From an uncultured Candidatus Saccharibacteria bacterium (GTDB taxonomy: Bacteria > Patescibacteriota > WWE3 > UBA101185 > UBA10185), in NCBI GenBank assembly GCA_964510435.1, contig CAZEBU010000003.1, positions 1 to 63,946 on the forward strand: DNA of 63,946 nucleotides. The letters are read 5' to 3'. Below the pieces are notes generated by a model. That model was not told the DNA's origin. It ran no database searches and saw only the letters and a program-made list of their open reading frames with translations. Shown piece by piece: positions 2,211 through 22,980 of this stretch. A program made the translations under genes and the position numbers. How positions within the stretch are numbered: position 1 is the first letter of the stretch; each line of letters starts with the position of its first letter.

Positions 2211-2750
2211 GTGGATAAGTACGAAACTTTACTAAAACAGGATAAAAAAACATTCCATGCTTCAGATTTAGCTCTGTTGTGGGGTATAGACAATCAAGGC
2301 ACATTAAACATGACGCTCAAGAGATTTGTGGATAGAGGTATATTAAAGCGAATTCACAAGGGTTTTTATGCTACAACGAATATAGGGGATTTAGACCCTC
2401 TGGATTTGGGTTTTTCCCACCTAAACACTTATAGTTATGTTTCTTTAGAAACTATTTTGGCAAGAGAGGGTGTTATATTCCAGGAAATTAAGTACGTTAC
2501 TTTTATAAGCTCTAAATCAACTATCTTTGAAATCGAAGGAACACAATACAAGTCTCGTCAATTAAAGGATGAGTTTTTAAATAATACTGCTGGTGTAAAT
2601 AAAGTAGATAACCATTTTGAAGCCATTGCAGAGAGGGCGGTTGCCGACATTCTTTATTACAGCCCAAAATATTACTTAGATAATTCCGCTGCGGTAGATT
2701 TTGATAAAGTAAAATATTTACAAAAGGAAATCGGCTATGTTAAGGGCTAA
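2211..2750 (+). CDS. AbiEi-family antitoxin (type IV TA system)
   Basis: GTG start. The N-terminal wHTH-like segment (FHASDLALLWG..NMTLKRFVDRGILKRIHKGFY) is typical of AbiEi_4 proteins. It overlaps the downstream toxin gene by 14 nt. Confidence 0.75.
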   Translation: MDKYETLLKQDKKTFHASDLALLWGIDNQGTLNMTLKRFVDRGILKRIHKGFYATTNIGDLDPLDLGFSHLNTYSYVSLETILAREGVIFQEIKYVTFISSKSTIFEIEGTQYKSRQLKDEFLNNTAGVNKVDNHFEAIAERAVADILYYSPKYYLDNSAAVDFDKVKYLQKEIGYVKG

Positions 2751-3459
2751 TAATAAGACGGCGTTGCATAAGTCAGTTATGTTTAGAGTTTTAATTAATA
2801 TCTTGGATGATTCATTACTTTCCCAAAATATGTATTTTAAAGGGGGCACGTGTGCGAGCATGCTAGGTTATTTGGATAGATTTAGTGTAGATCTCGATTT
2901 TGATATTAGTCGAAAAGATCTTCAAGTAGATCTCAAAAGAAAGTTGGAGGAGATATTTAAGAATATTGGTTTGACTGTAAATGATAGAAGTGAAAATACC
3001 GTTCAGTACTATCTAAAGTATGAGTCCCCGCCTAATTCTAGAAACACTTTAAAGATTGATGCGGTAGATACTCCTTATGAAAACAATAAATATGAAAAGG
3101 CCTTGCTGGACGAAATTAACCGTTACTCTATTTGTCAAACAAGAGAAACCTTATTTACAAATAAACTAGTAGCACTAGTTGACCGCTATGAACAAAGCGG
3201 ATCTATTGCAGGGAGAGATCTTTATGATATACATCATTTCTTGCAAAAAGGCTTTGATTTTAATGAGGAACTTATAGAGGAACGGAGAGGTACTAATGGA
3301 AAAGAGTATCTAGAATACCTAATTGAGTTTATTGAGGATAAGGCTACTCAAACAGTTATAAATCAGGATCTTAATTTTCTATTAGAGTATGAGAAGTTTA
3401 AAGCAATAAGGAAGACTTTAAAGACTGAAGCTATTGCGCTTTTGAAGTCTAGGATTTAG
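2737..3459 (+). CDS. AbiEii/AbiGii nucleotidyltransferase toxin
   Basis: Carries FKGGTCASMLGYLDRFSVDLDFD, the GS..DxD nucleotidyltransferase signature of the AbiEii family. It is coupled to the AbiEi gene. Confidence 0.8.
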   Translation: MLRANNKTALHKSVMFRVLINILDDSLLSQNMYFKGGTCASMLGYLDRFSVDLDFDISRKDLQVDLKRKLEEIFKNIGLTVNDRSENTVQYYLKYESPPNSRNTLKIDAVDTPYENNKYEKALLDEINRYSICQTRETLFTNKLVALVDRYEQSGSIAGRDLYDIHHFLQKGFDFNEELIEERRGTNGKEYLEYLIEFIEDKATQTVINQDLNFLLEYEKFKAIRKTLKTEAIALLKSRI

Positions 3460-7384: not shown

Positions 7385-7588
7385 ATGACTTCTAATCTTG
7401 GGTATTATCCTGTACCAAGTCTCTCCAGGATGGCTGGCGAAGTAGCCCTTAGGTGGAACACCATTTACCCCTCATTGTATAGAACATATAGAAGATTAAA
7501 AGAGCTTGGTTATCGTTATGAAAACGGTTCTATTGTTGTCCCCAAAGTGATAAATAAAAAACCCAGAAAGGAGGTGTATTATGACTAA
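7385..7588 (+). CDS. hypothetical small protein (67 aa) translationally coupled to the PLD nuclease gene
   Basis: Its stop overlaps the next start (ATGACTAA, 8-nt overlap). No recognisable motif. Confidence 0.4.
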   Translation: MTSNLGYYPVPSLSRMAGEVALRWNTIYPSLYRTYRRLKELGYRYENGSIVVPKVINKKPRKEVYYD

Positions 7589-8114
7589 TTTTGTTATGCC
7601 CAAAATTAATATATCTGCGATTGCAGGCCTTAGACAGCACTCGCCCGAATTAGTAGCATCAAAGCTTTACAACGAACATACGTTTTATAAGAAATTTTCC
7701 CAAGACTTGAAGAAAAGCAGACAGGAGGTAATTGTAGAAAGCCCTTATATTACTTCGACCAGGATGTATTCGCTAGCTCCCCTATTCCGATCATTGGTAG
7801 CACGAAAAGTAAAATGCTATGTAATAACTCGTGACCCCATTGATCATGATCTATCTATGAAGCAACAAGCCGAAAAAGAAATCCGAAAATTCCAAACAAT
7901 TGGAGTTCAGGTTATTTTGACCAATGAATATAGCCATCGAAAACTAGCAATTATTGATCGCAAGGTTTTATGGGAAGGCAGCCTAAATATTTTGTCACAA
8001 ACCAGTAGTCAGGAGTTTATGCGCCGGATTGAAAATGAGAAGCAAGCACAAGATTGCTTTAAGTTTGTGAAGTTTGGCAAGTTTATTTATGAAACGAGAA
8101 GGCCACGTTCTTAA
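7581..8114 (+). CDS. phospholipase D-family (Nuc/BfiI-like) nuclease, single HKD domain
   Basis: HRKLAIIDRKVLWEGSLN matches HxK(x4)D(x6)GSxN exactly. Size is about 177 aa, similar to Nuc. No obvious signal peptide. Confidence 0.75.
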   Translation: MTNFVMPKINISAIAGLRQHSPELVASKLYNEHTFYKKFSQDLKKSRQEVIVESPYITSTRMYSLAPLFRSLVARKVKCYVITRDPIDHDLSMKQQAEKEIRKFQTIGVQVILTNEYSHRKLAIIDRKVLWEGSLNILSQTSSQEFMRRIENEKQAQDCFKFVKFGKFIYETRRPRS

Positions 8115-8209
8115 ATACGTGGCTACGAGCTAAGTATTCTCGTAAGTAAAGAAGATGTCGCAGACAGATTCATTTACTAAAAGGGGGTGTTTAGATATAT
8201 AATACCCAT

Positions 8210-8419
8210 ATGACTGGATATCAGATAAATGAAAAAGATATTGATGGGATGCTTGATTTTCTCAAAGTAACCGATCCTGATAATGCTACGCTGGAAATGG
8301 CCATAGAGTTATTGGAATATCTCAAGGCACGCTTCCATACTATGGCTCATGAGAACCCAGAGGAATTAGAAAAACTCTACGAGGAGCTAAAGAAACAAAA
8401 AGAGTTGAAAAAGAATTAG
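8210..8419 (+). CDS. hypothetical small acidic helical protein (69 aa)
   Basis: ORF only. It overlaps the HTH gene 3' end convergently by 4 nt. Confidence 0.4.
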   Translation: MTGYQINEKDIDGMLDFLKVTDPDNATLEMAIELLEYLKARFHTMAHENPEELEKLYEELKKQKELKKN

Positions 8420-8637
8420 TAAGGTAAAATACTTGAGGATTTGACACCAAGGGCCCTAACTAGTTTGAGTAAGGTTATCACAGATAAACTAGCTTCCCCG
8501 CGCTCCACTTTGGCATAATAATTGCCATTAATACCTGCTTTTCTGGCAACCTGCTGTTGTGTCAGGTTTTGTTTGAGCCTAGCTGTTTTGAGTTTGTCGG
8601 CAATTGAATCTAGTGTTTTTTTATCCGTTTTCATCAT
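8416..8637 (-). CDS. XRE-family helix-turn-helix transcriptional regulator
   Basis: LTQQQVARKAGINGNYYAKVERGE is a Cro/CI-type HTH. The start was chosen at the MMKTDKK methionines. It is divergent from the recombinase operon. Confidence 0.7.
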   Translation of the reverse strand: MMKTDKKTLDSIADKLKTARLKQNLTQQQVARKAGINGNYYAKVERGEASLSVITLLKLVRALGVKSSSILPY

Positions 8638-8664
8638 ATGTTTGTAGTATAACACTCTGGATAT

Positions 8665-8976
8665 GTGAATTCCTGGCAAAAACCAAAGCCATTACTCGAG
8701 TATGCTAAGTTAATAATGATGCTTAAACCCATGTCCCATAACAATACTCATGAAAAACCTTTCCTACACTCTCCCCTGGAAACACCTGATGAAGAGAAAC
8801 TTCAAAAGGCAAAGGATATTTTGGGATCGCTATGTGAGCAACTAACTGATGAGCAAATAAAAACCATTATCACAGAAATTCAGTTTTTAACGGACACCTG
8901 GCTGGACGAATTTGAGCGAGAGATATTTAATGGGAAAACCATTCAAGAGTTGTTATCCGAGGAGATCCTGTTGTGA
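8665..8976 (+). CDS. hypothetical protein coupled to the serine recombinase (start uncertain; alternative ATG at 8716)
   Basis: Its stop overlaps the recombinase GTG start (GTGA). Confidence 0.4.
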   Translation: MNSWQKPKPLLEYAKLIMMLKPMSHNNTHEKPFLHSPLETPDEEKLQKAKDILGSLCEQLTDEQIKTIITEIQFLTDTWLDEFEREIFNGKTIQELLSEEILL

Positions 8977-10439
8977 GAAAAAATAATACTGTTATATATT
9001 TGAGAGTTTCCACCGATGAGCAGATTGATAATTTTTCTCTGGAAACACAGCTGGAAATCTGCCAAAACGAAGCAGATCGTCGGAAATTAGAAGTTGTAAA
9101 AATATTTCGAGAAGAAGGTAAATCTGCCAAGAATATTACTGGCAGACCCACGCTGGTTCAATTGCTAGCGTATTGCCGCAAAAACAAAAATAGTGTTGTA
9201 GCTGTAATTGTTTATCGTATTGATCGCCTATCTCGTCAAATTGCAGATTATTTGGCTATTCGCAAAAAACTGTCAGATAGTGGGGTCACTTTATATTCTG
9301 CCACAGAGCCTACGGGAGATAGTCCTACAGAAAAGCTGGTGGAGACAATGCTGGCTGGGTTTGCTCAGTTAGACAACGATATTAGATCTGAACGATCCAG
9401 CAACGGAATGAAAGCAAGATTTTTGGCAGGACATTGTAATGGTAAACCCCCTTTGGGTTATTTAATGAAGGATAAGGTGGTAGTCAAGGATCCGGAAACT
9501 TGGGACAAGGTAAAAGCATCCTGGGATTTAATGGCTACAGGCACAAAAAGTCTTAAAGACATGGCTAATTATATGAATGACCTAGGATTGCGCCATAAAC
9601 GTAGAGCAAAATCTTTCAGGATCAGGCCTCAATCGGCAGGCCGAATATTTCGACACAAGTTTTATACCGGTATATTAACTTCTAAGACTTATAAACTGGA
9701 GGTTCAAGGGCAACACTCACCCATGATCTCCCAAGCTCAATTTGATGAAGTTCAAGACATTTTGGATGGTAGGAATGTTAGAAATATTCCAGCGCAAAGA
9801 AAAGTAAGAGATAATACAGATTTCCCTCTTAGAAGAATTGTTAAATGTGGAAAGTGTGGCAGTGGTTTGACGGGAGCTTGGAGTAAGGGCAGAAAAGCAA
9901 AATATCCCTACTATCGATGTGGCAAACCATGTAACAGCAAATCTATTCGCTGGCAAGATGTGCATAATGAGCTAATTAATGTTCTCAGGAGCATTGAAGT
10001 AAAACCACAGACCAAGGCATTATTTGAATATTGCTTTGCTTCTACGTTCAAGGCTAGGAAAGAAGTGCTACAACAAAGAAAAAAACGCGTAAACGCTGAT
10101 ATTAGCAAATTTAAAGAATCAAAGAAGACAATTGTTAAGAAAAATCTTGCAGGAATATATTCTGATGAGATTTACAAAGAGCAAATGGCAATGGTAGCCT
10201 CCAAGTTGAACAGATTGACTATGCTCAAACAAGAACAGATCTACAAACAATATGACTTGACGAAACTAAATATAATGCTCGGCAAGAAACCAAAGCGGCT
10301 AGATAAAACCTACCAAGAACTATCCCCCAGTCAAATACGTGTATTTATTAGCTTGGTTTTTCAGGAGGGTTTGACTTGGGAGTATGAGGGAAAGCTGAGG
10401 CGTAAGGTGATTAATTTATGGGAAGATATAGAAAATTGA
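8973..10439 (+). CDS. large serine recombinase (integrase) 1
   Basis: VIYLRVSTDEQ (catalytic Ser), YRIDRLSR, a recombinase domain, a zinc-ribbon CGKCGS..YYRCGKPC and a coiled-coil tail. Confidence 0.9.
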   Translation: MRKNNTVIYLRVSTDEQIDNFSLETQLEICQNEADRRKLEVVKIFREEGKSAKNITGRPTLVQLLAYCRKNKNSVVAVIVYRIDRLSRQIADYLAIRKKLSDSGVTLYSATEPTGDSPTEKLVETMLAGFAQLDNDIRSERSSNGMKARFLAGHCNGKPPLGYLMKDKVVVKDPETWDKVKASWDLMATGTKSLKDMANYMNDLGLRHKRRAKSFRIRPQSAGRIFRHKFYTGILTSKTYKLEVQGQHSPMISQAQFDEVQDILDGRNVRNIPAQRKVRDNTDFPLRRIVKCGKCGSGLTGAWSKGRKAKYPYYRCGKPCNSKSIRWQDVHNELINVLRSIEVKPQTKALFEYCFASTFKARKEVLQQRKKRVNADISKFKESKKTIVKKNLAGIYSDEIYKEQMAMVASKLNRLTMLKQEQIYKQYDLTKLNIMLGKKPKRLDKTYQELSPSQIRVFISLVFQEGLTWEYEGKLRRKVINLWEDIEN

Positions 10440-10480
10440 TTGGGAAATCAAGCTAGTGTGTAGATTGTCATCAAGCTCGC

Positions 10481-11401
10481 TTAAAGCTTTTTGTCAAATG
10501 CCTCTAGTTCAGAAATATCTTTATGTTCTGTTATGTTGCTCACTTTTCTTTCAAAAGAAAACTCCTGTAAACCATCACTATATTTTGATGTGATAAATAA
10601 TTCAAAACTTAACTTTGAAGATTTCGAGTCTATGTAAATTCCTTCATTAATAAGCAAAATCGGTCGTCCCTTCTTTAAATCTCGTAAATTACAGCTTATA
10701 GATTTAGTGCTGTACTCAAGATTTGTCCTATACATCTCTCTTTCCCGAGTGTCTATACGCCCGAGAAAAGAAAATATATCTTTAGCTGGATCTGAAGGTA
10801 ACCAAGGACAATTTAAATCATGAACGCTAGCTATGCTTCCCGTTTTTAAGATAAATTCAACAGATATTTTTTCATCAAATTTATTAGATTCAAGTTTGAT
10901 GAAAATTCCAACCAAATACCTACTCTTATTGTAGAAAGATCGTAACTCGTCTTTGTAGTCCTTCAAAGATTGAATGTACTCCAAATTACTCTCTTGTGTT
11001 TTATGCCTACGAAATCCAACGGAGGCAAGTCTGCCAAATATACCTGCAGAAGGTAGAGTAGGTGTTTCACCTTCTAATATTTTAATCTGTTTATCGATTG
11101 CCTTAAGATGCTCATCAATTCTAATTTTAAAATATTCAGGTGTAACAGTAAATTTTGTCTTTTTGCTTTGTAAAGATTGCAGTGCCAAGTGCTCTTTTCT
11201 CCAGGTTTGATAAATTGCAACAAATACCGCCGACGCTATAAAAAAAGATTTGTAAAAATTTGAAAATTCAAATGATTTTATTGGCTCAGGAAAGTATGTA
11301 TGAAGAAGATCATATAATGTTGGTAGCAAAAGTAGTAATGTTGCCCACTGGAAAATAGTCTTAGAAATAAAAACAAGTAGGTATTTTATCTCTTTTTTCA
11401 T
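10481..11401 (-). CDS. membrane protein (two N-terminal TM helices, 306 aa), last gene of the LexA-SIR2 operon
   Basis: Hydrophobic segments LLVFISKTIFQWATLLLLLP and FFIASAVFVAIY. Only a 3-nt gap after the SIR2 stop. No known domain recognised. Confidence 0.55.
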   Translation of the reverse strand: MKKEIKYLLVFISKTIFQWATLLLLLPTLYDLLHTYFPEPIKSFEFSNFYKSFFIASAVFVAIYQTWRKEHLALQSLQSKKTKFTVTPEYFKIRIDEHLKAIDKQIKILEGETPTLPSAGIFGRLASVGFRRHKTQESNLEYIQSLKDYKDELRSFYNKSRYLVGIFIKLESNKFDEKISVEFILKTGSIASVHDLNCPWLPSDPAKDIFSFLGRIDTREREMYRTNLEYSTKSISCNLRDLKKGRPILLINEGIYIDSKSSKLSFELFITSKYSDGLQEFSFERKVSNITEHKDISELEAFDKKL

Positions 11402-11404
11402 GAC

Positions 11405-12412
11405 TTATGTCTTTAAAGGAAGATTTAATGCACTAAATATTTCAGACAATTCTGGGTTTATTGTTCTTTGGTTACGTGGAAAAATTTGACTGAATCTATA
11501 TGGAAAATAGCCAGCTACCCCATCCCAGATGCTAGTTCCAACTTCATTCGCGCTTCTTATTTGACCCTGACCTCTGTATAAAAGGTTGTCTAGAAATTTT
11601 TCTACATTTTGAGGTGATACGATAAAAAGTTTTAGACCGTTATTCGTGCAAGCATCCGCTAATAACTTGTTTATGTGGGGATCTCTAAATCCATAACCAA
11701 TTATGAGTAATTTCACGTTCCCGGCAGATATAGCTTGTTGAAATAGTACGAAATACCAGTTCAGCAAAGGAATTCTTGCTATTGTATTCATTTTATTGAT
11801 CCCTATTACCTTGCTATCTGCTCCATTAGAAGTTATCCATCTGAGCGATCCATGTAGCTTAACGTAGTATTTTGCGTCTCCCATCTGTGCTTTGAATGTT
11901 TCCAACTCACTCTCAATAGGAAGTTGTTTAAAAGTTTCGGCATCAAGGTCTGAATTGCTCACATCCCCCCAACTGCCAGCATAGTTCATTGATTGAGGTG
12001 TTAAGGGTCTCCAACCAAACCTTTTTTCCATCACCATATCTTGGTTTAAAGTAAAACAAGCATTTGAGGACGCTACGAATCTGTCTAAAAATCTACGAAC
12101 GTCACTAGGGTGAAGGGGTAATGAATCCCATCTGGACTGAATAACTCTATCCATAGAAACATAAGCTTCATTTACTATGTCTTTAAATATCTGAACCTCA
12201 TTCTCTGGAAGTCCACTTCTTTCGTCAAACACATCTGAATAAATTTCTTCAAAATCAAACTGTTTTCTCAATTTGATTTTCAGTTGTCCAGCATCATTTA
12301 ATTTTGGATTATTAAAAATCCAAGACCACATTTCTCTGGCCAAAAAGCCACCGAAATTAGCTGTAAACCCTGCGCCTGTCAAAAGTAAGGTGTTTCCAAA
12401 AGCAATTGTCAT
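11405..12412 (-). CDS. SIR2-like (SIR2_2 family) protein, putative NAD+-consuming effector
   Basis: LLLTGAGFT (GAGxS/T), FTLNQDMVMEK (catalytic Asn region), YVKLHGSLRW (catalytic His) and LLIIGYGFRDPHIN. Confidence 0.75.
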   Translation of the reverse strand: MTIAFGNTLLLTGAGFTANFGGFLAREMWSWIFNNPKLNDAGQLKIKLRKQFDFEEIYSDVFDERSGLPENEVQIFKDIVNEAYVSMDRVIQSRWDSLPLHPSDVRRFLDRFVASSNACFTLNQDMVMEKRFGWRPLTPQSMNYAGSWGDVSNSDLDAETFKQLPIESELETFKAQMGDAKYYVKLHGSLRWITSNGADSKVIGINKMNTIARIPLLNWYFVLFQQAISAGNVKLLIIGYGFRDPHINKLLADACTNNGLKLFIVSPQNVEKFLDNLLYRGQGQIRSANEVGTSIWDGVAGYFPYRFSQIFPRNQRTINPELSEIFSALNLPLKT

Positions 12413-12423
12413 AATTTACACTT

Positions 12424-12732
12424 TCATTTTTTCCTTTTCTCTTTAGCCATCTTTAACCTAAAATCTGCATTCAGTTTTTGAGCACCTTGCTTTAGGGATT
12501 TCAATTGAGAGTCATCGCCTTTTAGGCTAGTGGGGGTTTCAACCTCTCCTATCATTTTTATTTTGCTACCTTGTTTGACCATAACATCAGGGATCTTCCC
12601 ATGAACAGGATCTGGTTTATTGTATCCTGGTAAATCAGCAAGCACCGTTTTACCCGGTCCTTTAAGCCTGTTGGCCCACTGGCTAACTTTTGTATCATGA
12701 GTCTTCTGTCCTCTTTTTGTTCTTAAAGCCAT
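12424..12732 (-). CDS. small basic protein (102 aa), possible minimal PD-(D/E)xK-like fold
   Basis: IPDVMV..x11..IGEVET resembles a D..ExK-type core but lacks the Lys. Its start shares 1 nt with the lexA stop (TAATG). Confidence 0.45.
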   Translation of the reverse strand: MALRTKRGQKTHDTKVSQWANRLKGPGKTVLADLPGYNKPDPVHGKIPDVMVKQGSKIKMIGEVETPTSLKGDDSQLKSLKQGAQKLNADFRLKMAKEKRKK

Positions 12733-13349
12733 TAGTCACCACCACCCTTCAATACATCTACAGCTATACCTTGAACTGTGAAGTCATCAAACATATAAAA
12801 TGGTTTATTTTTGTCATTATCAGATTCTGGCATAAGTTTTATACACCCTTCACCTTCTACCATTTTTTTAACTGTTGCATCATCGCCAATCAATGCAACA
12901 ACTCGAGAGCCAAAGTCTGCGGTTGGTTGTTTTTTTACCAAAACACAGTCTCCATCATCGATCGTTTTATCATTGATATTTGATTTATTCATACTATCGC
13001 CAGTTGCACGTAGGAAAAAATAATCATCGGCATCACCCTGAAGTTTCGAGCTGTCATATGGAACATAAGCCTCAACATTTTCTATAGCTAATAGTGGAGT
13101 GCCTGCTGAAATCTGACCTACCAGGGGAATTTGAACTTTCTCACTGTCTTTGATAAGTGAAATACCTCGTGAATCAACCAGGTACCCCTTTCTTTTCAAC
13201 TCATCGGTATGCCGTTGAACAGAACTAAGGCTGGTGTAATTTAACAATTTCCTTATCGCTTCCAGAGTAGGTGAAATACCGTTTTTATGTGCATAATCTC
13301 GAATTGCTACTAGTACTTCTTTTTGCTTTGATGTTAGTTGCCTGTCCAT
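12732..13349 (-). CDS. lexA: LexA repressor (S24 peptidase)
   Basis: N-terminal LexA wHTH (LTSKQKEVL..GISPTLEAI..KGYL), Ala-Gly cleavage site in VGQISAGTP, Ser nucleophile in GDSM and Lys in ATVKKM. Confidence 0.9.
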   Translation of the reverse strand: MDRQLTSKQKEVLVAIRDYAHKNGISPTLEAIRKLLNYTSLSSVQRHTDELKRKGYLVDSRGISLIKDSEKVQIPLVGQISAGTPLLAIENVEAYVPYDSSKLQGDADDYFFLRATGDSMNKSNINDKTIDDGDCVLVKKQPTADFGSRVVALIGDDATVKKMVEGEGCIKLMPESDNDKNKPFYMFDDFTVQGIAVDVLKGGGD

Positions 13350-13356
13350 GCGTAGT

Positions 13357-13385
13357 ATTATACGCTATAACGCGTGGTATTTCAA
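13357..13385 (-). promoter_or_regulatory. sigma70-type promoter of the lexA operon (TTGAAA-N17-TATAAT), near-leaderless
   Basis: The -10 is the complement of 13357-13362 and the -35 is the complement of 13380-13385. There are only 7 nt between the -10 and the ATG. Confidence 0.55.
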
Positions 13386-13386
13386 G

Positions 13387-13403
13387 TAGAATGGTACATT
13401 CTA
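13387..13403. promoter_or_regulatory. palindrome TAGAAT-N5-ATTCTA abutting the -35; candidate LexA operator
   Basis: tagaatggtacattcta was read directly. A second palindrome, TTATAcgcTATAA (13358-13370), overlaps the -10. Confidence 0.35.
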
Positions 13404-13526
13404 GTATTCTGTTATCCCTCAAGGTGATGTAATATAATGGTAACTAATGGTAGATACTACAAAAGACAACACAACACCAAACTGCCTGAACTAATAACCT
13501 TAAAAGAAGCTTGCGAGATAGAGATT

Positions 13527-13943
13527 TCAGGCCGAGTTTATAAAGTCAATAACTCTTTTAATCTCTTTGGAAAACCAGTTTTTATTATTTAACTCGCATT
13601 CCCACAATACTAATATCTCCCATCCCAAGCTTTTTAGTTTGATGATGTTTGCCTTGTCTCTTTTTTTGTTTCCAAGTAGTTTTTCTTTCCAAAACTTCTT
13701 ATTAGTTACAGGTAGCATGGCTTTTTTACAGTTATGTTGATGCCAAAAACACCCATGCACAAATATGGCAATCTTTTTTTCAATAAAAACAATATCGGGT
13801 CTTCCTGGAAGTTTATAGTGTATGCGATATCTCATGCCCTCAGCAAAAAAAGCTTTTCTTACGCTAAGTTCCAAAGCCGTGTCTTTTCCCTTTACTCGGG
13901 ACATATTCTTACTTCTTTGTCTTTTGGTAATCCTATCCGCCAT
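13527..13943 (-). CDS. vsr: very short patch repair endonuclease
   Basis: RSKNMSRVKGKDTALE, PGRPDIVF, AIFVHGCFWHQH and WECEL. The start was trimmed to MADRITK (the ORF-track 5' extension overlaps the methylase gene). Confidence 0.9.
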   Translation of the reverse strand: MADRITKRQRSKNMSRVKGKDTALELSVRKAFFAEGMRYRIHYKLPGRPDIVFIEKKIAIFVHGCFWHQHNCKKAMLPVTNKKFWKEKLLGNKKRDKANIIKLKSLGWEILVLWECELNNKNWFSKEIKRVIDFINSA

Positions 13944-13986
13944 ACTGTATTTTTGTATTATAATAGATTTATTGAAGTAACATCCT

Positions 13987-14991
13987 ATGAAAAACAAAAA
14001 CACCGCACATACATTTACATTTATTGACCTTTTTGCAGGGATCGGAGGTATTAGGATTGCTTTTGAAAAAGTGGGGGGAAAGTGTTTATTTACGTCCGAA
14101 TGGGACAAATATTGCCAAGAAACATATCATAAGAATTTCGGTGAAATACCCCATGGAGATATAAGAAAAATAGACATTTCCGATATTAAAGATCATGATG
14201 TTTTGCTGGCAGGATTCCCTTGTCAAGCTTTTTCTATAGCAGGTAAACGCGGTGGTTTCGAAGACACTAGAGGTACATTGTTCTTTGAGACTGCAAAAAT
14301 AATAAAGGAAAAACAACCTAAAGCTTTTTTCTTAGAAAACGTCAAGGGACTAGTTAACCACAGAAGCGGGCAGACTCTTTCAACAATACTTAATGTTTTA
14401 AGAAATGAATTGGGTTACTTTGTACCAGAACCTAAAATAGTGAATGCTAAGGATTTTGGAGTTCCTCAAAACAGAGAAAGAATATTTATTTTAGGTCTCA
14501 GGCAAGACTTAGGCATAAAAGACTTTAACTACCCCAAGCCTTTAGTTACAGAAGTCAAGATAAAGGATATTTTGGAAAAAAATCCCGTATCAGTTAAATA
14601 TTATCTATCAAATCAATATCTTGAGTCGCTTAGAAAACACAAGAGAAGACACGAAAGCAAAGGTAATGGATTCGGTTACGAAATACTTAATGAAAATGGA
14701 ATAGCTAATGCCCTGGTAGTAGGTGGTATGGGGCGCGAAAGAAACCTCATAATAGATACCCAGTTAAAAAACTTTACTCCTGTAACAAACATAAAGGGAG
14801 AGGTTAATCGGGAGGGAGTAAGAAGACTAACTCCACGGGAGTGCGCACGTCTTCAAGGATTTCCCGAAAGCTTCGACATCCCCGTTTCGGATGCACAAGC
14901 CTATAAACAATTCGGTAACTCTGTTGCAGTCCCCGCTGTACATGCAACTGCCAAAAAACTAGTTTATAAGTTGAAAGGGGTACTTGTATGA
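13987..14991 (+). CDS. DNA (cytosine-5)-methyltransferase
   Basis: Motif I FIDLFAGIGG, motif IV GFPCQAFS, ENVKGL, QNRERIF, TPRECARLQGFP and GNSVAVP. Confidence 0.92.
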   Translation: MKNKNTAHTFTFIDLFAGIGGIRIAFEKVGGKCLFTSEWDKYCQETYHKNFGEIPHGDIRKIDISDIKDHDVLLAGFPCQAFSIAGKRGGFEDTRGTLFFETAKIIKEKQPKAFFLENVKGLVNHRSGQTLSTILNVLRNELGYFVPEPKIVNAKDFGVPQNRERIFILGLRQDLGIKDFNYPKPLVTEVKIKDILEKNPVSVKYYLSNQYLESLRKHKRRHESKGNGFGYEILNENGIANALVVGGMGRERNLIIDTQLKNFTPVTNIKGEVNREGVRRLTPRECARLQGFPESFDIPVSDAQAYKQFGNSVAVPAVHATAKKLVYKLKGVLV

Positions 14992-16070
14992 TTACAGGAA
15001 ATAAAGGTGAATGGAGTGAAATTTACGCTTTTTTTAAACTGCTGTCCAATGGTAAATTGCATGCTGCAGATGAGAATTTGGAAAAGATTAAGGACATCTA
15101 CTATCCGATAATAAATATTCTTAAAGAAAACGGACTTGAATATAAAAGAAATTCGAGTATCAAAATCATTGATGGGGAAACGGGGAATGAAATAATGTCC
15201 CTACCTGTAGATGAATTCACAAATGCATCAAAGCAGTTGTTAGCAAGAATTAAAGAAGATAAGAAGAAAAACGGTACATTCTCGTTCAAAGAAATAGAGG
15301 GATTTTTAGAAAAAATAAAAATCAGGTCCATAAAATCCCCATCGAAGAAAAAGGAAGATATAACGCTTATTGTGCACGATTTTAGAACAGGGTTAAAACC
15401 AAAACTTGCGTTTAGTATAAAGTCTATGCTGGGAAGTGCATCAACTTTGCTTAATGCAAGCAAATCAACCAATTTCATTTACAAACTGATAACCAACAGG
15501 CTTTCCGTTCGAGAAGAGGAAGTCCCTTATGGAACAGACACTAAAATGAGAATACGAGATGCCTTGGTACAAAAACTCAACGAAGATTACAAGATTATTT
15601 TTTCGGAAATCCCAAACAAAACCTTTAAATCCAACTTGCAAATGATAGATAGCATGTTACCCGATCTGTTGGCATGGGTGGTTTTTTACTACTACACTAC
15701 AAACAATAATTCTCTTGTTGACTTAACAAAACTGTTGGAAAAAAATAATCCGCTAGGTTACGACAAAGATGTAGCTCATAAATTTTATAGACACAAAATT
15801 AAAAACTTTCTACTTGACGTTGCCTTAGGAATGACGCCTTCGACACCATGGAAGGGAAAATATGATGCTACAGGGGGTTATTTGATTGTAAAAAGTGATG
15901 GAGATATTGTCTGTTACCACATCTACAACATTAATGAGTTTAAAGAATATCTGTTTAAAAATACGAAATTGGATACACCTTCAACATCTCGACATGACTT
16001 TGGAAAAATTTATGCGGGGGATAGTACCTTGGAAGTGAAGCTAAACCTCCAAATAAGATTTATAAAATGA
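14988..16070 (+). CDS. type II restriction endonuclease, HpaII-family-like
   Basis: The N-terminal NKGEWSEIYAFFKLL matches my recollection of the HpaII family. It overlaps the methylase stop by 4 nt. A Vsr gene next door fits a C5-methylase system. Confidence 0.65.
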   Translation: MITGNKGEWSEIYAFFKLLSNGKLHAADENLEKIKDIYYPIINILKENGLEYKRNSSIKIIDGETGNEIMSLPVDEFTNASKQLLARIKEDKKKNGTFSFKEIEGFLEKIKIRSIKSPSKKKEDITLIVHDFRTGLKPKLAFSIKSMLGSASTLLNASKSTNFIYKLITNRLSVREEEVPYGTDTKMRIRDALVQKLNEDYKIIFSEIPNKTFKSNLQMIDSMLPDLLAWVVFYYYTTNNNSLVDLTKLLEKNNPLGYDKDVAHKFYRHKIKNFLLDVALGMTPSTPWKGKYDATGGYLIVKSDGDIVCYHIYNINEFKEYLFKNTKLDTPSTSRHDFGKIYAGDSTLEVKLNLQIRFIK

Positions 16071-16320: not shown

Positions 16321-17319
16321 TCACAAACTGCTTTCGTAAATGTGGTTTCTACTAAACTTTTTACAAGTGCGTATTTGATCATTGCCTTTTGTCCTGGTTT
16401 GCAAAACTGGCTTGATTAACATCAATTCAGCAAACTCTTCCAATTTAAATCCTTGGGTTTTAGAAACCTGTTTCGTAAAACTCACTAGACCCTGTATTTT
16501 GTTGTATTTGCTAGACGGAATAAAATCTTTGAACTTGGCATTTTCAATGATGAGATTCCTTATTTCTTGAAATTGTTGCCTGTTTATTGATAATTTGGCA
16601 TTGACAGTTATTCCAGTAACTTTTTGACAATAACCTGAAGTGATAACCTTTACCTTACGTCTTTTCACTGCATACTTGTTTTTCAATAGAACTCTAACTA
16701 TGTATTCGATCGCCTCTTCAACTTCTTTTCTATCCCCAGAAATAGTGATGTCATCAATAAACATGGAGGCGTCCAACCCTGTTTTTTCACTATATTTTTT
16801 AAAGTCATTAAATATTGGAGTAAGTACATAGTTGCATAGTAATGGACTAGTTGGAGCACCCTGAGGTAACCTGTGTTGGAATGTTGTGAGTTTGGTTAAA
16901 ATATTTGCTGTTTTTGCACCACAACCAAAGCAATCTATCCAAACTCGATGTACTTTATTGTGGCTAATATTTGGAAAACAGTTCTTAATATCAACTATGC
17001 CAATACAGTCCTTACCTACGTGGACTTTTGCGTTATCAACAATTGATTTACCAGAAACCCCACCTGTCATTCCAGGAGGTAATTGACATAATTCCTTATT
17101 GAGAATTCTTTTTAGTATCTTCTTTTGGATACCTTTTAAAGGATATTGCGGGTTGTCTATATGTCTCCATTTATTGGTACCTTTTTTGTGAAGGTCAAAT
17201 GGTTTGTAGAATCTACCTGAAGTGTTGGCCAATTGCTGAAGTTCAATGCGATCGCAGTCTAGTAAAGACTCTAAATATTTCAATGATAATATTTGAACTG
17301 AGGTGTGTAATTTACTCAC
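16321..17319 (-). CDS. retron-type reverse transcriptase
   Basis: IVDIKNCFPNI, LPQGAPTSPLLCN, FIDDITISG (YxDD box) and QKVTGITVN (the retron-typical VTG motif). Size is 332 aa. Confidence 0.8.
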   Translation of the reverse strand: MSKLHTSVQILSLKYLESLLDCDRIELQQLANTSGRFYKPFDLHKKGTNKWRHIDNPQYPLKGIQKKILKRILNKELCQLPPGMTGGVSGKSIVDNAKVHVGKDCIGIVDIKNCFPNISHNKVHRVWIDCFGCGAKTANILTKLTTFQHRLPQGAPTSPLLCNYVLTPIFNDFKKYSEKTGLDASMFIDDITISGDRKEVEEAIEYIVRVLLKNKYAVKRRKVKVITSGYCQKVTGITVNAKLSINRQQFQEIRNLIIENAKFKDFIPSSKYNKIQGLVSFTKQVSKTQGFKLEEFAELMLIKPVLQTRTKGNDQIRTCKKFSRNHIYESSL

Positions 17320-17321
17320 AT

Positions 17322-17603
17322 TTAATTCCCCAATAATGCAAGAAGTAGGTTTTTACCAATCTTTTCAATCTCATTTTTATCAGCGTTTTTAAGATCGTCT
17401 TTATCAGATGCTAATAGGGAAAGAAGGTAAAAAGGTATTTCGAGTTTTCTCGAAATCTCTTCTAATAATTTTACACTGGGAGTTCTTTCACCTTTCTCTA
17501 TTCTTGATAGGTAGCTTGCATCAAGTTTTAGCTCCTCACTCAAGTCTTTTTGTGAAATCCCTTTGGCAGCGCGAATAGTTTTTATTGCTTTTCCGTAGTT
17601 CAT
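17322..17603 (-). CDS. XRE-family HTH protein, retron accessory candidate
   Basis: ISQKDLSEELKLDASYLSRIEKGERTPS. Its stop lies 2 nt from the RT start. Confidence 0.7.
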   Translation of the reverse strand: MNYGKAIKTIRAAKGISQKDLSEELKLDASYLSRIEKGERTPSVKLLEEISRKLEIPFYLLSLLASDKDDLKNADKNEIEKIGKNLLLALLGN

Positions 17604-18353: not shown

Positions 18354-19874
18354 ATGAATAAACAAAAAATAACACTCTCAAAATCCGACTACATGCTTTT
18401 TCTTCGCCACCCTGCTTGGTTTTGGTTGAAGAAGTTTGATAAGGCTAAGTTGCCTGCCGTTGACGATAATTTGCAGGCAATGTTTGATGCAGGGCATGAG
18501 TTTGAAGGGTATGCAGAACAGCTTTTTCCTGCCGGAGTTAAGCTTGGGTTTAATAACTATCAGGAGTACCTTTCTCTACCTCAACGAACCAAAAACGCAT
18601 TAGTTGAAGATGTTTCTACCATTTTTCAAGGCCGTTTTGAAGCAGATGGGATTACTTGCATTATTGATGTACTAAACAGAGTTGAGGGTAATACTTTTGA
18701 TTTAGTAGAGATAAAAAGCAGTACCAAAGCCAAGCTGGAGCATTACTATGATCTAGCCTTTCAGACTATCGTTTTGGAGAAATCAGGACTTACAATTCGG
18801 AATATCTCTGTAATTCATATAAATAATGAATACATGCGCCAGGGCAAGATTAATCCCCAAACGCTGACTACAGAAACTGATGTTACCGAGGAGGTGAAAG
18901 CCTTGATCAATCTCACCCAAGAACAAATAGACAAAGCATTTGTGATCTTGTCTACAAAAACCATGCCCGATATCTCACCCCGTTTTGTCAATCAGCTTGG
19001 TGTCCCTAGAGTAAACTGGTTTGCAGAATGGCTGGATATCTACAAGAGTCTAAAGCCTGAGCTTGATCCATACAACATCTACAATCTAGGCTATTCGAAT
19101 GCTGAGCAAATAGGCAAACTAGAAGACGAAGGTATTGAGCTAATTGCAGATATTCCAGAGGAACTGGCTTTGCGACCTAAACAAATTACCCAAATCAAAA
19201 CTACTCGCGACAACAAGCGCATAATTGAAAGCCAAATGATCAGAGAGTTTTTGGATACCTTTGAATACCCCCTATATTTCTTTGACTACGAGACATTTTC
19301 CTCGGTGATTCCCGCCTTTGATGGCTGTAAACCCTACAAAGATTACCCTTTTCAGTATTCCTTACATATTCTAGACATACCAGATGCAGAAGTAAGGCAT
19401 GAAGAATATTTGCATGCTGACAACTCCAACCCTATGCCAGTGCTTATCGAAAAACTAAAGGTTGATATCGGAGACAAGGGCACCATTCTTACTTGGAACA
19501 TGAGCTATGAAAAGGGATGCAACACTAGAATGGCAGAATTTTACCCAGAGCATAAAGAGTATTTAGAAAGTTTGAACGAGCGCATTAATGATCTAATGAT
19601 TCCATTTTCGCAAATGTGGTTTGTAGACAAAGATTTCTTTGGCAGTGCAAGCGTCAAAAACGTTTTGCCGGTACTGGCACTGGAGCTAAGCTACAAAGAA
19701 CTAGACGTATCAGATGGCCTCAAGGCGCGCAGAATGTGGACACAAACTGTTTTGGAGGGTAAGAATGGGAAGGATTGGGAAAAGATAATGTCAGATTTGA
19801 GCAAATATTGTACACTTGACACCTTTGCCATAGTAAGGATTTTGGAAGAATTAAAGAAAATAGTTTCCAACTAA
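18354..19874 (+). CDS. DUF2779-family protein (N-terminal PD-(D/E)xK nuclease plus C-terminal exonuclease-like domain)
   Basis: IIDVL..FDLVEIKSSTK (D..ExK) and YFFDYETFSSVIPAFDGCKPYKDYPFQYSLH, which I recognise as the DUF2779 hallmark. Confidence 0.65.
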   Translation: MNKQKITLSKSDYMLFLRHPAWFWLKKFDKAKLPAVDDNLQAMFDAGHEFEGYAEQLFPAGVKLGFNNYQEYLSLPQRTKNALVEDVSTIFQGRFEADGITCIIDVLNRVEGNTFDLVEIKSSTKAKLEHYYDLAFQTIVLEKSGLTIRNISVIHINNEYMRQGKINPQTLTTETDVTEEVKALINLTQEQIDKAFVILSTKTMPDISPRFVNQLGVPRVNWFAEWLDIYKSLKPELDPYNIYNLGYSNAEQIGKLEDEGIELIADIPEELALRPKQITQIKTTRDNKRIIESQMIREFLDTFEYPLYFFDYETFSSVIPAFDGCKPYKDYPFQYSLHILDIPDAEVRHEEYLHADNSNPMPVLIEKLKVDIGDKGTILTWNMSYEKGCNTRMAEFYPEHKEYLESLNERINDLMIPFSQMWFVDKDFFGSASVKNVLPVLALELSYKELDVSDGLKARRMWTQTVLEGKNGKDWEKIMSDLSKYCTLDTFAIVRILEELKKIVSN

Positions 19875-19879
19875 CCAAG

Positions 19880-21640
19880 CTAGTCTTCATATTTCAAATT
19901 ACCCTTACTAATCCTACACTTTACAACCCTTAAGTTACTTTGAGGTAAATAATTTAGCAATGCCGATCTTTTTCCAATCAATTTATTACGAAGACGGTCA
20001 AATACCTTAAAAGAAACAATGGCACAAGACCTTTTGGCTCTTGTCAGCGCAACAACAAATCTATAGATATCCTCCCCAGTTATATTATATGGGCTTGCTG
20101 GTAGTACCCCATTGTGGCATTCCCAAATGATTACGTGTAATGCTGATAGTCCTTTAGAGCCAAGATAATTTGTGAGTTTGACGCGGACTTTGTTGGGATT
20201 TTCGGTAATAATCTCATTAGATGTGTTTTTCTCTGAAAAGTACTCTTCAATTTTGACCATATGTTTGTTTTTGTAGACTTCTGGCAACAATTCAAAAATA
20301 GGGACACTTTCCCTATGCGATCGTTTTATTATTGTAGCTATGCTCTCCAGTGGATCCTCACGTAGAATGATTCTCCATCCTAAGTTGTTTTTCTCATCAG
20401 CGCGCACCATTTTATAACCAACCACAATTTCATTGTTGCTTTCATTTTCCTTTTTTTCAATCATAAATAAGTCCATATCTAAGTTACTTACAAGGTATTT
20501 TGCTAGGGAATCTAGCCTGTGTTGCGATTCGGCACCAATGACAAGAAATTGAATGTCCTTTTCTGTACCAACCAGGCTTTCATTGTTTGTAATAGTCTCA
20601 ATATGGTTTTTAATAAATTTAAAAGCTGTCTTTTCAACGGAGCATTGTACTTCAATAATTTGAGGGTATTTTGTATCTAATGCAAATTTGTCAGGCCAGT
20701 AGCTAATATACTTTTTATCATTGATACGATCATGCAGAAGACCAGTACTTATAGCTTTTTTGATGAGACTATTTACGGAATTCACCAATACACTAGTGCA
20801 CCTACTTGAGAAAGGGAGGTTAAATTTTTGATTTGAAGGAAGGCTATTGTACAAATTTATAATAAACTTTTTTGATGCTTTTCTAAAGCCATACAAGGAT
20901 TGATCATCATCTCCCGCTACCAAGATTGGATTTTTTGAAGACAATACGTTAATAAATGAGGACTCGAGTTTATTGAAGTCTTGATACTCATCGGCTATAA
21001 CAAGGTCATACTGAGGGATAAGATAGCTATTTGAGGAAAGTGCTTTGTATACTTTATATACGGAATCCTGATGACTGATTGCACTATAATACGAGGATCT
21101 GCTAAGAAAAAATAGTAAGCTAGCATTTTCTTCATCTAAATTTGCAAATGCAGCATGGAAGTTCTTTTTGGAATAGCTGAGTTCAAGAATGGCAGCATCG
21201 CTTTCAATTATCGTAGCTAGGTTCGGGTAATATATGCCATCAAAACCTAATTTTGAATAAAGAAGTTCTTTGCAATATCCGTGGAATGTACTAGCTTTTA
21301 CATTCGCAAATTCCGGTTTATCAAACTCATTTATCAAATCATTAGCTAGGTTATTTATCAAAGTGAAAATGCGTGCATTGGAATTTGGAGGCATTTTTTT
21401 GATAACTTGCATAAAAGTGAATGTTTTCCCAGTTCCTGGACCTGAAACAATTAGTCGTAAATGAGCTTTTGAATCTGTCACTAATTTCAACTTTTCTTTT
21501 CTCTCTTTGTGAAAAGATGCACATTTTTCGCAAACTGCAAGTGAGCCTGTTAGCTTCTTAGCTATATTAATTCTGAATTCCTTGGCACTGAAAGCATATG
21601 TTTTTTCAGTTTGCAAACCACAATTTTGACAGCATTTCAT
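19880..21640 (-). CDS. UvrD/Rep-like SF1 helicase with N-terminal zinc ribbon
   Basis: CQNCG..CEKC, Walker A SGPGTGKT, DExQ-type VIADEYQDFN, VAGDDDQSLY and C-terminal VALTRAKRS. Confidence 0.75.
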   Translation of the reverse strand: MKCCQNCGLQTEKTYAFSAKEFRINIAKKLTGSLAVCEKCASFHKERKEKLKLVTDSKAHLRLIVSGPGTGKTFTFMQVIKKMPPNSNARIFTLINNLANDLINEFDKPEFANVKASTFHGYCKELLYSKLGFDGIYYPNLATIIESDAAILELSYSKKNFHAAFANLDEENASLLFFLSRSSYYSAISHQDSVYKVYKALSSNSYLIPQYDLVIADEYQDFNKLESSFINVLSSKNPILVAGDDDQSLYGFRKASKKFIINLYNSLPSNQKFNLPFSSRCTSVLVNSVNSLIKKAISTGLLHDRINDKKYISYWPDKFALDTKYPQIIEVQCSVEKTAFKFIKNHIETITNNESLVGTEKDIQFLVIGAESQHRLDSLAKYLVSNLDMDLFMIEKKENESNNEIVVGYKMVRADEKNNLGWRIILREDPLESIATIIKRSHRESVPIFELLPEVYKNKHMVKIEEYFSEKNTSNEIITENPNKVRVKLTNYLGSKGLSALHVIIWECHNGVLPASPYNITGEDIYRFVVALTRAKRSCAIVSFKVFDRLRNKLIGKRSALLNYLPQSNLRVVKCRISKGNLKYED

Positions 21641-21693
21641 ACTTCAATTATACATCGATGGTAATGACCCCCTTCTAATATTGACTGTCTTTT

Positions 21694-21811
21694 AGGGGTC
21701 TTACCCCTCATTTTGCAAGGGCTTCGTAAATTGCTCCCTTTGCTCGCAACCCTTGCAAAACTCACCCCGCTTTTTTGTTTCTTCAGGTACGAGAGCAGGC
21801 GTGCTGCTCTC
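21694..21811. promoter_or_regulatory. cluster of inverted repeats; candidate oriT / leading-region element
   Basis: AGGGGTcttACCCCT (21694-21708), TTTTGCAAGGG..N28..CCCTTGCAAAA (21711-21760) and GAGAGCAGgcgtgCTGCTCTC (21791-21811). Confidence 0.3.
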
Positions 21812-21841
21812 ATATAAAAATTTGAAGAGAAGGAAAAGCAA

Positions 21842-22601
21842 ATGAAACTATCTACCAAAGCACAAGCTAGCATTAACAAAGTCATAGAAAAGTTCAAAAC
21901 TGGTGATCTATCGTCCATTAGTAGAGTTGCCAGAATTAGGCTTGATAAATCAGCCCCAGCACACAAATGGAGTTTATCTAATAAAGTAATTGCTTTTGTT
22001 CAAGCTGAAGAACTAGATTGCAGGGGGTTTAGACAATGGCAAGATGTAGGACGACAAGTCAAAAAAGGTAGCAAGGCTGTATACATCTTTCGCCCCCACA
22101 CTATCAAAAAAGATGATGAGAATGGAGAAAAAGAAAATATTTGCATTGGATTTTCAACTGCTCCGGTATTTGCCGCCTCTTGTACGGAGGGGGAAAACAA
22201 CTTGCCAGGATATACCCCCGCAGAGCTTCCCCCTCTGGCAGACATAGCCAAGAAATTTAATATTTCAGTTGAATATGTACCAGTAACTCCCGATAAGCTA
22301 GGAGACTGTAAAGCAGATGGAAGCAAGATAAGACTAGGCAGTCAGGACACAAGAGTATTTTTCCACGAATTAAGCCATGCCATACAACGCTAGGATTGAT
22401 GGAAAGCTTAAAGGAGGGCAACAGATAGATCAAGAAACCATAGCCGAATTCACAACAGCGGTACTGATGGATTTCTACGGTTTGGGAGATCACACCGGCA
22501 ATGCCTGGAAATATATCAGTCAATACGCAGGTGATCCACTAGTTGCCATTACTAAGGCTCTGGGAACGGTTGAGAAGGTGTTGGGGGTATTACTCCAGTA
22601 A
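21842..22601 (+). pseudogene. ArdC-like antirestriction / ssDNA-binding metalloprotease gene, split by a frameshift near 22377-22393
   Basis: ArdC-N-like FRQWQDVGRQVKKGSKAVYIF, then FFHELSHAI followed by a TAG. The expected continuation (RIDGKL..QETIAEFTTAVLM..NAWKYI) lies in the adjacent frame. Confidence 0.55.
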
Positions 22602-22910: not shown

Positions 22911-22980
22911 ATTGTCTAAATTATAACAAGAGGTCCTATTTTGTAATAGAAAGAAATTGCTAAGTGTTCAATGCTTTTGC

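Follow-up and report, generated by a model that had tools for sequence, protein, structure and literature searches.

A LexA-headed operon with SIR2 cargo on a CPR mobile island: a candidate DNA-damage switch for interchangeable defence genes

Known damage-responsive regulators and the LexA-p102 operon

How toxic immune systems stay silent and are then switched on is an active question. The regulator modules known so far number three (WYL repressors, CapH/CapP and CapK/CapS), all of them DNA-damage-responsive: CapW/BrxR, CapH with CapP, and CapK with CapS are small modules found directly upstream of immune operons of various kinds, and their repression is lifted after DNA damage. Here we analyze a stretch of 63,946 nucleotides (the 64-kb window) from contig CAZEBU010000003.1 of an uncultured Candidate Phyla Radiation (CPR)/Patescibacteria bacterium, in which a lexA gene heads a four-gene operon within a mobile island. 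It is followed by genes for a 102-aa protein (p102), a SIR2-domain protein and a 306-aa protein with predicted N-terminal transmembrane segments (TM306). Like CapW, CapH/CapP and CapK/CapS, the LexA-p102 pair is found directly upstream, in both orientations, of CBASS (an antiphage signalling system based on cyclic oligonucleotides), SIR2 and restriction-modification (R-M) cargo. Unlike those modules, its repressor combines a LexA winged helix-turn-helix (wHTH) with an S24 domain, rather than being a WYL protein, an XRE-HTH/metallopeptidase pair or a kinase/repressor pair, and the partner is the predicted Hjc/AHJR-like p102; the likeness is limited to position and presumed logic. Profile scans of LexA and p102 found no XRE-HTH/Zn-metallopeptidase, wHTH-WYL-WCX or kinase/repressor domains. 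LexA is not mentioned in the CapH/CapP and CapK/CapS literature that we searched, and a literature search found no report of a LexA-headed SIR2 or CBASS operon.

Two other described arrangements resemble the locus in part. In the lexA2-imuA-imuB-imuC (dnaE2) cassette of Pseudomonas putida and other Proteobacteria, the leading gene encodes a LexA paralogue that represses the cassette, and all the genes are expressed as one transcript after DNA damage. The window operon likewise has lexA as the first cistron of a multi-gene cassette, with presumed self-regulation, whereas the lexA2-imu cassette has a translesion-synthesis mutasome as its cargo, is chromosomal, is conserved as a whole and includes no p102-like gene. 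The second arrangement is that of SetR/CI on SXT/R391, where a self-cleaving repressor of the LexA/CI family is also carried on an integrative element with variable anti-phage cargo. SetR is the SOS-cleavable repressor of SXT-type integrative and conjugative elements (ICEs). Unlike the cargo of the window operon, the defence genes of SXT occupy hotspot 5, at a distance from setR, and are not known as cistrons of the repressor operon, and unlike CI-type repressors the window LexA passes the LexA equivalog model. What is new here is the type of regulator (LexA with an AHJR-like protein), the lineage (CPR) and the combination of cargo (SIR2 with TM306).

The operon (10481-13403) consists of four tightly packed minus-strand open reading frames (ORFs) behind a single near-consensus promoter:

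13349..12732, minus strand: lexA, 205 aa
12732..12424, minus strand: p102, 102 aa
12412..11405, minus strand: SIR2, 335 aa
11401..10481, minus strand: TM306, 306 aa

The TAA stop codon of lexA and the ATG start codon of p102 share base 12732 (TAATG), and the gaps that follow measure 11 nt between p102 and SIR2 and 3 nt between SIR2 and TM306. These coordinates agree exactly with the four co-oriented, nearly contiguous genes of the initial annotation, which had been made without database searches. Between the genes no promoter-like or terminator-like site was predicted on the coding strand, and lexA, p102, SIR2 and TM306 are probably co-transcribed as one transcription unit.

Judged by its profiles and residues, the product of the first gene is a genuine LexA, a self-cleaving repressor of the LexA type. 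It scores 134 bits on the NCBIfam equivalog TIGR00498 (cutoff 110.95). Its N-terminal wHTH matches PF01726 (LexA_DNA_bind) over residues 3-57 (E 5.6e-11, 42.5 bits vs 23.7), and its C-terminal S24 self-cleaving domain matches PF00717 (Peptidase_S24) at 1e-21. The cleavage site is Ala82-Gly83 and the catalytic dyad is formed by Ser119 and Lys161, so the complete LexA that had been claimed on the strength of its wHTH, Ala-Gly site and Ser/Lys dyad is confirmed. From established LexA biology we would expect this protein to bind and autoregulate its own promoter and to be induced in a RecA-dependent manner; recA is absent from the 64-kb window.

We propose that the island-borne, autoregulated LexA-p102 head puts interchangeable defence cargo under DNA-damage control, a reading that we hold to be evenly balanced between right and wrong. 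LexA would bind a palindrome in the spacer and -10 region of its own promoter and keep the whole unit nearly silent. DNA damage, or single-stranded DNA (ssDNA) arising from phage or plasmid attack, would activate RecA, upon which LexA would cleave itself at the Ala-Gly site, and p102 and the cargo would then be transcribed. The SIR2 cargo of the window would use up NAD+, either alone or assisted by the membrane protein, and phage growth would be limited or the cell killed. A stand-alone SIR2 that lacks a sensor makes sense if its control is transcriptional.

LexA-p102 linkage and its variable cargo

The sample of p102 loci is small and metagenomic, comprising about 12 distinct loci, 10 of which are independent and have readable upstream DNA. 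In eight of these 10, p102 adjoins a LexA-type gene. The pair is co-directional in three loci and divergent in five, and the genes that accompany it differ from locus to locus:

Window: lexA and p102 co-directional; SIR2 and TM306 follow
L011: lexA and p102 co-directional; a CBASS operon follows
L025: lexA and p102 co-directional; genes for 64 aa and 205 aa, a ParB-methyltransferase, a methyltransferase and others follow
L016: lexA and p102 divergent; a 103-aa ORF before p102 and a type IIG R-M gene (MmeI/Eco57I-type) after it
L017: lexA and p102 divergent; a 57-aa ORF, then the contig end
L019: lexA and p102 divergent; a 115-aa ORF before p102 and an NYN gene after it
L020/L024: lexA and p102 divergent; a 117-aa ORF, then a serine recombinase
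L026-28: lexA and p102 divergent; a 68-aa ORF, DUF2130, then a serine recombinase

An alignment of the eight p102-linked LexAs shows no variation at G83, S119 or K161, and at position 82 it has Ala or Cys; the TIGR00498 cutoff is passed by six of the other seven, and the cleavage site and dyad are kept in all. All eight loci lie on islands of the CPR/Patescibacteria type, in many cases alongside a large serine recombinase. The gene after p102 nearly always overlaps it or begins within a few nucleotides, and its identity varies.

The clearest example of LexA at the head of a defence cassette is L011:6342-9634, on a 247-kb CPR contig (JGI Ga0366824_1000010). Here a LexA 59% identical to that of the window and a p102 at 75% identity precede a complete CBASS operon, identified by PADLOC as a 1TM effector (1.2e-56), a CD-NTase (8e-48) and an E2 protein (7e-34), with 1 nt between the LexA-p102 pair and CBASS and gene spacings of 1-2 nt. 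The p102-to-CBASS order is retained at 79% DNA identity in L018:8-1380. Thus the suggestion that LexA can head a defence cassette, which had been drawn from the window alone, is strongly supported by the LexA-p102-CBASS operon. In the divergent loci L016, L017, L020/L024 and L026-28, it is lexA that opens operons encoding N4/N6 or C5 methyltransferases, Eco57I/MmeI-type enzymes and an HNH protein, and LexA-headed R-M operons seem to recur in p102-bearing islands. The conserved unit is LexA plus p102, and SIR2 with TM306 is one of several swappable cargoes behind the pair.

The two members of the unit are conserved to different degrees, with p102 identity across loci of 56-77% vs 30-41% for LexA (59% in L011). 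High conservation of p102 beside very divergent LexAs argues for conserved control of p102 by a LexA-type repressor rather than for a specific contact between LexA and p102.

The proteins encoded behind lexA

The p102 protein is very basic (pI 10.3), with conserved residues H12, D33, P48-D49, E63-x-E65 and Q76. Profile scans, Pfam, PADLOC and NCBIfam among them, gave no direct family match for p102 itself. The AlphaFold2 (AF2) model, with a predicted local distance difference test (pLDDT) score of 84, is a small alpha-beta-beta-beta-alpha-beta protein, and its leading Foldseek matches, which all have the PD-(D/E)xK fold, are REase-like, VRR-NUC, FAN1, TnsA and cap-snatching endonucleases, all of them weak (E >= 0.05). 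The tight subfamily amounts to 20 cluster representatives among 5.8 billion clusters. A profile built from it retrieved 405 representatives in 1.84 billion proteins, mostly of about 100 aa; among 54 sampled relatives detected in this way, 42 match AHJR-like PF18743 (best 7.8e-9) and 14 match Hjc (PF01870). The sole sequence match in the PDB is a weak one (E 0.04) to 2eo0 (ST1444), the Hjc resolvase of Sulfolobus, and the alignment places D49 and E63-x-E65 of p102 opposite the D and E-x-K of Hjc. On the predicted fold and the family matches of its relatives, p102 would be a minimal restriction-endonuclease-fold protein of the Hjc/AHJR-like type. It resembles archaeal Hjc and AHJR-like PF18743 in size, predicted fold and the aligned D...E-x-(K) core, and differs from them in lacking a Pfam match of its own, in its conserved basic N- and C-terminal tails, in an invariant His12 and in having Glu in place of the motif Lys.

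Because the motif Lys is a Glu, the nuclease activity of p102 is uncertain. The same Lys-to-Glu replacement (E63-V-E65 in p102) also occurs in BamHI, and p102 may either be an ExE variant of the BamHI kind or lack catalytic activity. It could serve as an SOS-induced nuclease or junction-processing enzyme for the element, as a toxic effector, or as a sensor/amplifier that feeds RecA activation. Neither p102 nor TM306 had matches in phage genomes, plasmids or IMG/VR. Beside two p102 relatives we noted genes of the Exo_endo_phos nuclease family: one lies upstream of the 56%-identical relative at L023:6105-8306, with a small opposite-strand ORF between them, and another lies directly upstream of the relative in L031, which has an RHS toxin locus beside it.

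The last of these roles leads to a stronger version of the proposal, in which LexA plus p102 is a self-contained and portable 'SOS switch' of immune operons, with p102 as an obligatory sensor/amplifier rather than cargo. A junction- or branch-specific p102 would turn foreign DNA into RecA-activating ssDNA, or would directly stimulate LexA cleavage, and the positive feedback would commit the cell to abortive effectors such as SIR2 and CBASS. On this version the pair would constitute a fourth class of damage-responsive defence regulator, distinct in mechanism from the other three and the first from CPR bacteria. We regard this version as quite unlikely.

SIR2 passes PF13289 (SIR2_2) with 29.1 bits against a gathering score of 24.5. 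N123, D125 and H187 are invariant in 32 homologues and G13-A14-G15 nearly so. In PADLOC it has partial matches to SIR2 and Aga_SIR2 (5e-13), the latter being the best and covering residues 118-272 only, and its NCBIfam SIR2_antiphage score is far short of the cutoff (40.6 vs 500). Searched against the PDB, the family profile finds as its nearest solved relatives chains deposited as SIR2 family or SIR2-like, 8yhx (8.6e-13) and 8j4u, which we take to be SIR2 subunits of SIR2-HerA systems. The protein is a single domain of 335 aa with no sensor domain, and we presume it to be an NAD+-consuming effector that forms the variable cargo of the window locus. The initial calls for the three proteins considered so far are borne out: LexA as described above, the PD-(D/E)xK-like 102-aa protein at the level of fold and family and with Glu for the motif Lys, and SIR2 both by profile and by its landmarks (GAG, N-x-D and the His).

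Like the SIR2 proteins of Thoeris (ThsA), DSR1/DSR2, SIR2-HerA and SPARSA, the window protein has a SIR2_2-type domain with conserved Asn/Asp and His. Unlike them, it has no SLOG domain, no long sensor region and no adjacent HerA, prokaryotic Argonaute (pAgo) or TIR partner. It is not a member of any of these systems because the required partner or domain is absent. For Thoeris, the 335 residues contain neither a SLOG nor a Macro domain, and the scanned neighbours include no TIR gene. For SIR2-HerA (Nezha), the SIR2 neighbours are p102 and TM306, and the sole DUF87-like match is a coupling protein of a type IV secretion system (T4SS) 13 kb away. DSR1 and DSR2, of about 1000 aa with a long C-terminal sensor region, are ruled out by the length and single domain of SIR2, and SIR2-pAgo (SPARSA) is ruled out since the neighbourhood holds no pAgo gene and the Aga_SIR2 match is only partial.

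The SIR2 family has about 1060 matches. We inspected the flanks of 15 loci, seven (L001-L010) with a SIR2 at 46-73% identity and eight from IMG/VR (L034-L041) with one at 27-33%, a sample that leaves out the closest relatives, P0002-P0005 (73-81% identical). LexA (six variants tested), p102 and TM306 were found in none of these 15 loci. The genes downstream of the SIR2 homologues are unrelated to one another, and TM306 has no homology to them. Three SIR2 homologues have a tightly coupled partner: a 275-aa PD-(D/E)xK-like protein with a PD...EIK motif (L001:7008-7835), a 358-aa nucleoside-deoxyribosyltransferase-like protein (L005:6928-8004) and a Cas4-like fragment (L008:5159-5311). The occurrence of SIR2 homologues with variable coupled partners suggests a family of two-gene SIR2 systems.

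TM306 has no family match in the same profile scans. Hydropathy analysis gives one clear and one weaker N-terminal hydrophobic segment, and the low-confidence AF2 model (pLDDT 67) has long helices at 2-36 and 48-78 followed by a mostly beta, poorly modelled C-terminal domain; the two agree with the earlier description of a 306-aa protein with two N-terminal transmembrane helices and no recognizable domain. The Foldseek matches were limited to generic Ig-like beta-sandwich adhesins with TM-scores near 0.2, from which we drew no functional inference. The family consists of 11 unannotated cluster representatives. One relative is the last gene of an RloB - SLFN/AlbA_2 - 164-aa operon (L012:1-3458), and another is the first gene of a six-gene operon whose five other genes have no annotation (L029:7001-11937). 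Neither SIR2 nor LexA lies beside TM306 in these two contexts, a count that leaves out the relatives P0142 and P0144-P0149. The behaviour of TM306 is that of a module that moves between candidate defence operons.

Taken across loci, the view of LexA-p102-SIR2-TM as one system thus holds in part: p102 is syntenic with lexA in eight of 10 loci, and the links to SIR2 (0/15) and TM306 (0/2) do not recur. The same counts bear on the possibility that SIR2 and TM306 were mobile genes inserted independently behind LexA-p102, with no functional link to the pair or to each other. The absence of LexA, p102 and TM306 from the 15 other SIR2 loci, the placement of TM306 relatives in two unrelated operons and the many different downstream partners of SIR2 relatives all favour such a chance juxtaposition. 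However, the 11-nt and 3-nt gaps could not accommodate a promoter or terminator, nor is either predicted there on the coding strand, known defence systems are tightly coupled to p102 in the equivalent slot of other loci, and selection would be expected to remove an unregulated, sensor-less NADase quickly. We consider an accidental arrangement very unlikely.

Promoter region, island setting and weight of the evidence

Upstream of lexA lie the promoter and three overlapping or adjacent repeats:

13385..13357, minus strand: sigma-70-type promoter TTGAAA-N17-TATAAT, 11 of 12 positions matching
13387..13403, minus strand: perfect 7-3-7 inverted repeat TAGAATG-N3-CATTCTA (TAGAATGtacCATTCTA), ending 1 nt upstream of the -35 hexamer
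13358-13370, minus strand: -10 palindrome TTATA-GCG-TATAA (TTATAGCGTATAA / TTATAgcgTATAA), overlapping the -10
13362-13375, minus strand: inverted repeat ACGC-N6-GCGT in the spacer and -10, overlapping TTATA-GCG-TATAA

The promoter is the best promoter-like site, and the only strong one of the sigma-70 type, in 10200-13800. Only 7 nt lie between its -10 and the ATG of lexA, and the lexA mRNA is therefore probably leaderless or nearly so. The promoter and its two bracketing palindromes were found as the initial annotation had described them. The three co-directional lexA genes (window, L011 and L025) have in common a -35/N17/-10/7-nt/ATG geometry and a palindrome in the spacer:

Window promoter: cACGCgttataGCGTa
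L011 promoter: TACGCCagttGGCGTA
L025 promoter: TTAAAgaatgaTTTAA

ACGC-N6-GCGT occurs once in the 64-kb window (0.11 expected), and the L011 promoter holds it at the equivalent position (TACGCCAGTTGGCGTA). The spacer palindrome of L025 is a different one, TTAAA-N6-TTTAA. We consider the spacer palindrome ACGC-N6-GCGT, which together with the overlapping TTATA-GCG-TATAA spans 13358..13375, to be the most likely candidate for the LexA operator. The TAGAATG-N3-CATTCTA repeat is unique in the window even when up to three mismatches are allowed, and the L011 promoter retains only its left half, TAGAATG, in the same place; a second operator and an UP-like element are both possible roles for it. Other palindromes, such as CTACTTttgtcAAGTAG in L017 and L020, are found in the divergent loci. 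An operator universal to p102-linked LexAs was rejected, ACGC-N6-GCGT being common to the window and L011 only. Within the window, further copies of the palindromes, which would indicate a wider regulon, were not found beyond chance. Sites matching TACGC-N6-GCGTA with two mismatches were seen at 21788-21803, about 40 bp upstream of the ArdC-N gene, and at 27603-27618, about 95 bp upstream of the second recombinase gene; such matches are at chance level in the window (11 found vs 8.3 expected).

The operon lies within an ICE- or integrative and mobilizable element (IME)-like island of about 22 kb, at about 7.5-29.5 kb of the window, and the great majority of the relatives of its proteins come from CPR/Patescibacteria (Curtissbacteria, Microgenomates, Gribaldobacteria, Woesebacteria). 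The other features of the island are:

7581-8976: PLD-like nuclease, small ORF, XRE-HTH and 103-aa ORF, in the left part of the island
8973..10439, plus strand: large serine recombinase (Pfam Resolvase, Recombinase, Zn_ribbon_recom)
13527-14108: Vsr very-short-patch repair endonuclease, divergent from the HpaII-type R-M genes
13987-14991: M.HpaII-like C5 methylase
14988-16070: R.HpaII
16321-17603, minus strand: retron-like reverse transcriptase (RT; PADLOC RT_VI, 3e-73) with a preceding 93-aa XRE-type HTH gene (17322-17603)
18354-29551: ICE/IME-like backbone with a DUF2779/Cas4-like nuclease, UvrD-like helicase, ArdC-N, Replic_Relax (relaxase-like) and Abi_alpha
24662-27382: TrwB/TraG-type type IV coupling protein (T4CP)
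27710-29551: second serine recombinase ORF, whose 3' end overlaps tRNA-Gln (29376-29449, opposite strand)

The first recombinase is convergent with the operon, its stop codon 41 nt from that of TM306, and the complete HpaII-type R-M and Vsr block (13527-16070) lies directly upstream of the lexA promoter. A mobile-island setting, with a serine integrase on one side and an R-M system on the other, had been claimed and is thus borne out, as are the tight operon and its promoter. LexA is inside a mobile element, not beside one, with mobile-element and defence genes on both of its flanks, and in L026 host genes bound the whole block. The island is integrative and probably mobilizable or conjugative. 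No convincing att-type direct repeats delimiting it were found in the window. The RT and HTH genes fit a type VI retron as judged by their profiles; an Rfam scan of the window found only tRNAs and identified no msr/msd RNA. The PLD/HTH module recurs at L002:9035-10303 (PLD at 48% identity), beside a SIR2 homologue on a T4SS-bearing element, and the PLD gene, small ORF, XRE-HTH and 103-aa ORF may be a conserved island module in their own right. Close to the island but beyond it, at 2211-3459, there is an AbiEi/AbiEii type IV toxin-antitoxin pair.

Could this simply be the host's own SOS locus, with the only lexA of the bacterium, a lineage-specific SOS repair gene in p102, and islands that insert beside them? 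The protein is a full LexA equivalog, the base composition of the operon is no different from that of its flanks, and divergent arrangements of lexA and an SOS gene are classical, as in lexA-yneA of Bacillus. However, mobile-element and defence genes lie on both sides of the window lexA and the block in L026 is bounded by host genes, the neighbours on the LexA side are methyltransferases and R-M genes, the candidate operator occurs just once in 64 kb, and with 20 cluster representatives among 5.8 billion clusters the tight p102 subfamily is much too rare to be an SOS gene general to CPR. We find this explanation highly improbable.

A position on a mobile element also allows LexA to be a CI/SetR-like master repressor of the island itself. 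In such an element life-cycle switch p102 would serve the element, resolving junctions or branched DNA in excision, replication or transfer, or acting as an early 'establishment' gene upon entry into a repressor-free cell, and co-expression of the cargo would be incidental, with a hotspot behind p102. Large serine recombinases recur within a few kb of p102 (L020/L024, L025 and L026/L027), a relaxase-like gene, a T4CP and ArdC-N are present on the island of the window, and the Hjc/AHJR-like fold predicted for p102 is one used by junction resolvases. The better conservation of p102 than of the LexAs fits a conserved function under interchangeable repressors, LexA-side operons carry ParB-methyltransferase-type genes typical of element establishment, and SetR-type SOS control of ICEs is established in SXT. 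Against this, the gene after p102 is coupled to it or a few nucleotides away, which makes cargo expression hard to separate from that of p102, and the recombinases are only about 27% identical to that of the window, so that there is no conserved backbone beyond LexA-p102. We consider control of the element alone possible but on the whole unlikely; it is compatible with damage-gated defence and not exclusive of it.

Several observations weigh against the proposal that the LexA-p102 head places its cargo under DNA-damage control. The LexAs linked to p102 share only 30-41% identity with the window LexA outside L011, and no operator is common to all of them, the palindromes differing among the promoter regions compared. 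Not every p102 has a LexA neighbour: there is none within 8 kb upstream in L023, probably none in L021, where a tRNA lies 200 bp upstream, and none adjacent to the 42%-identical relative in L031 (5376-6306). The Lys of the (D/E)xK motif is replaced by Glu65 (E-V-E-T) invariantly in the p102 subfamily, so that p102 lacks the full catalytic triad. The SIR2-LexA and TM306-LexA links are confined to the window and its identical fragment L022, and this cargo could therefore be a recent passive insertion. Finally, in one RNA-seq survey of E. coli, defence expression tended to fall, not rise, with recA induction.

The lineage is of interest as well: the genomes of CPR bacteria are tiny, and experiments have so far revealed next to nothing about immunity or SOS control in them. 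With a single promoter, a repressor, a p102 partner and a stand-alone SIR2, the locus offers a testable system, and position behind p102 provides a 'guilt-by-position' handle on new defence genes such as TM306, DUF2130 and several unannotated ORFs. Overall, this locus and its relatives suggest that a classical SOS repressor has been recruited as a portable, island-borne switch placed before interchangeable defence cassettes, CBASS included.

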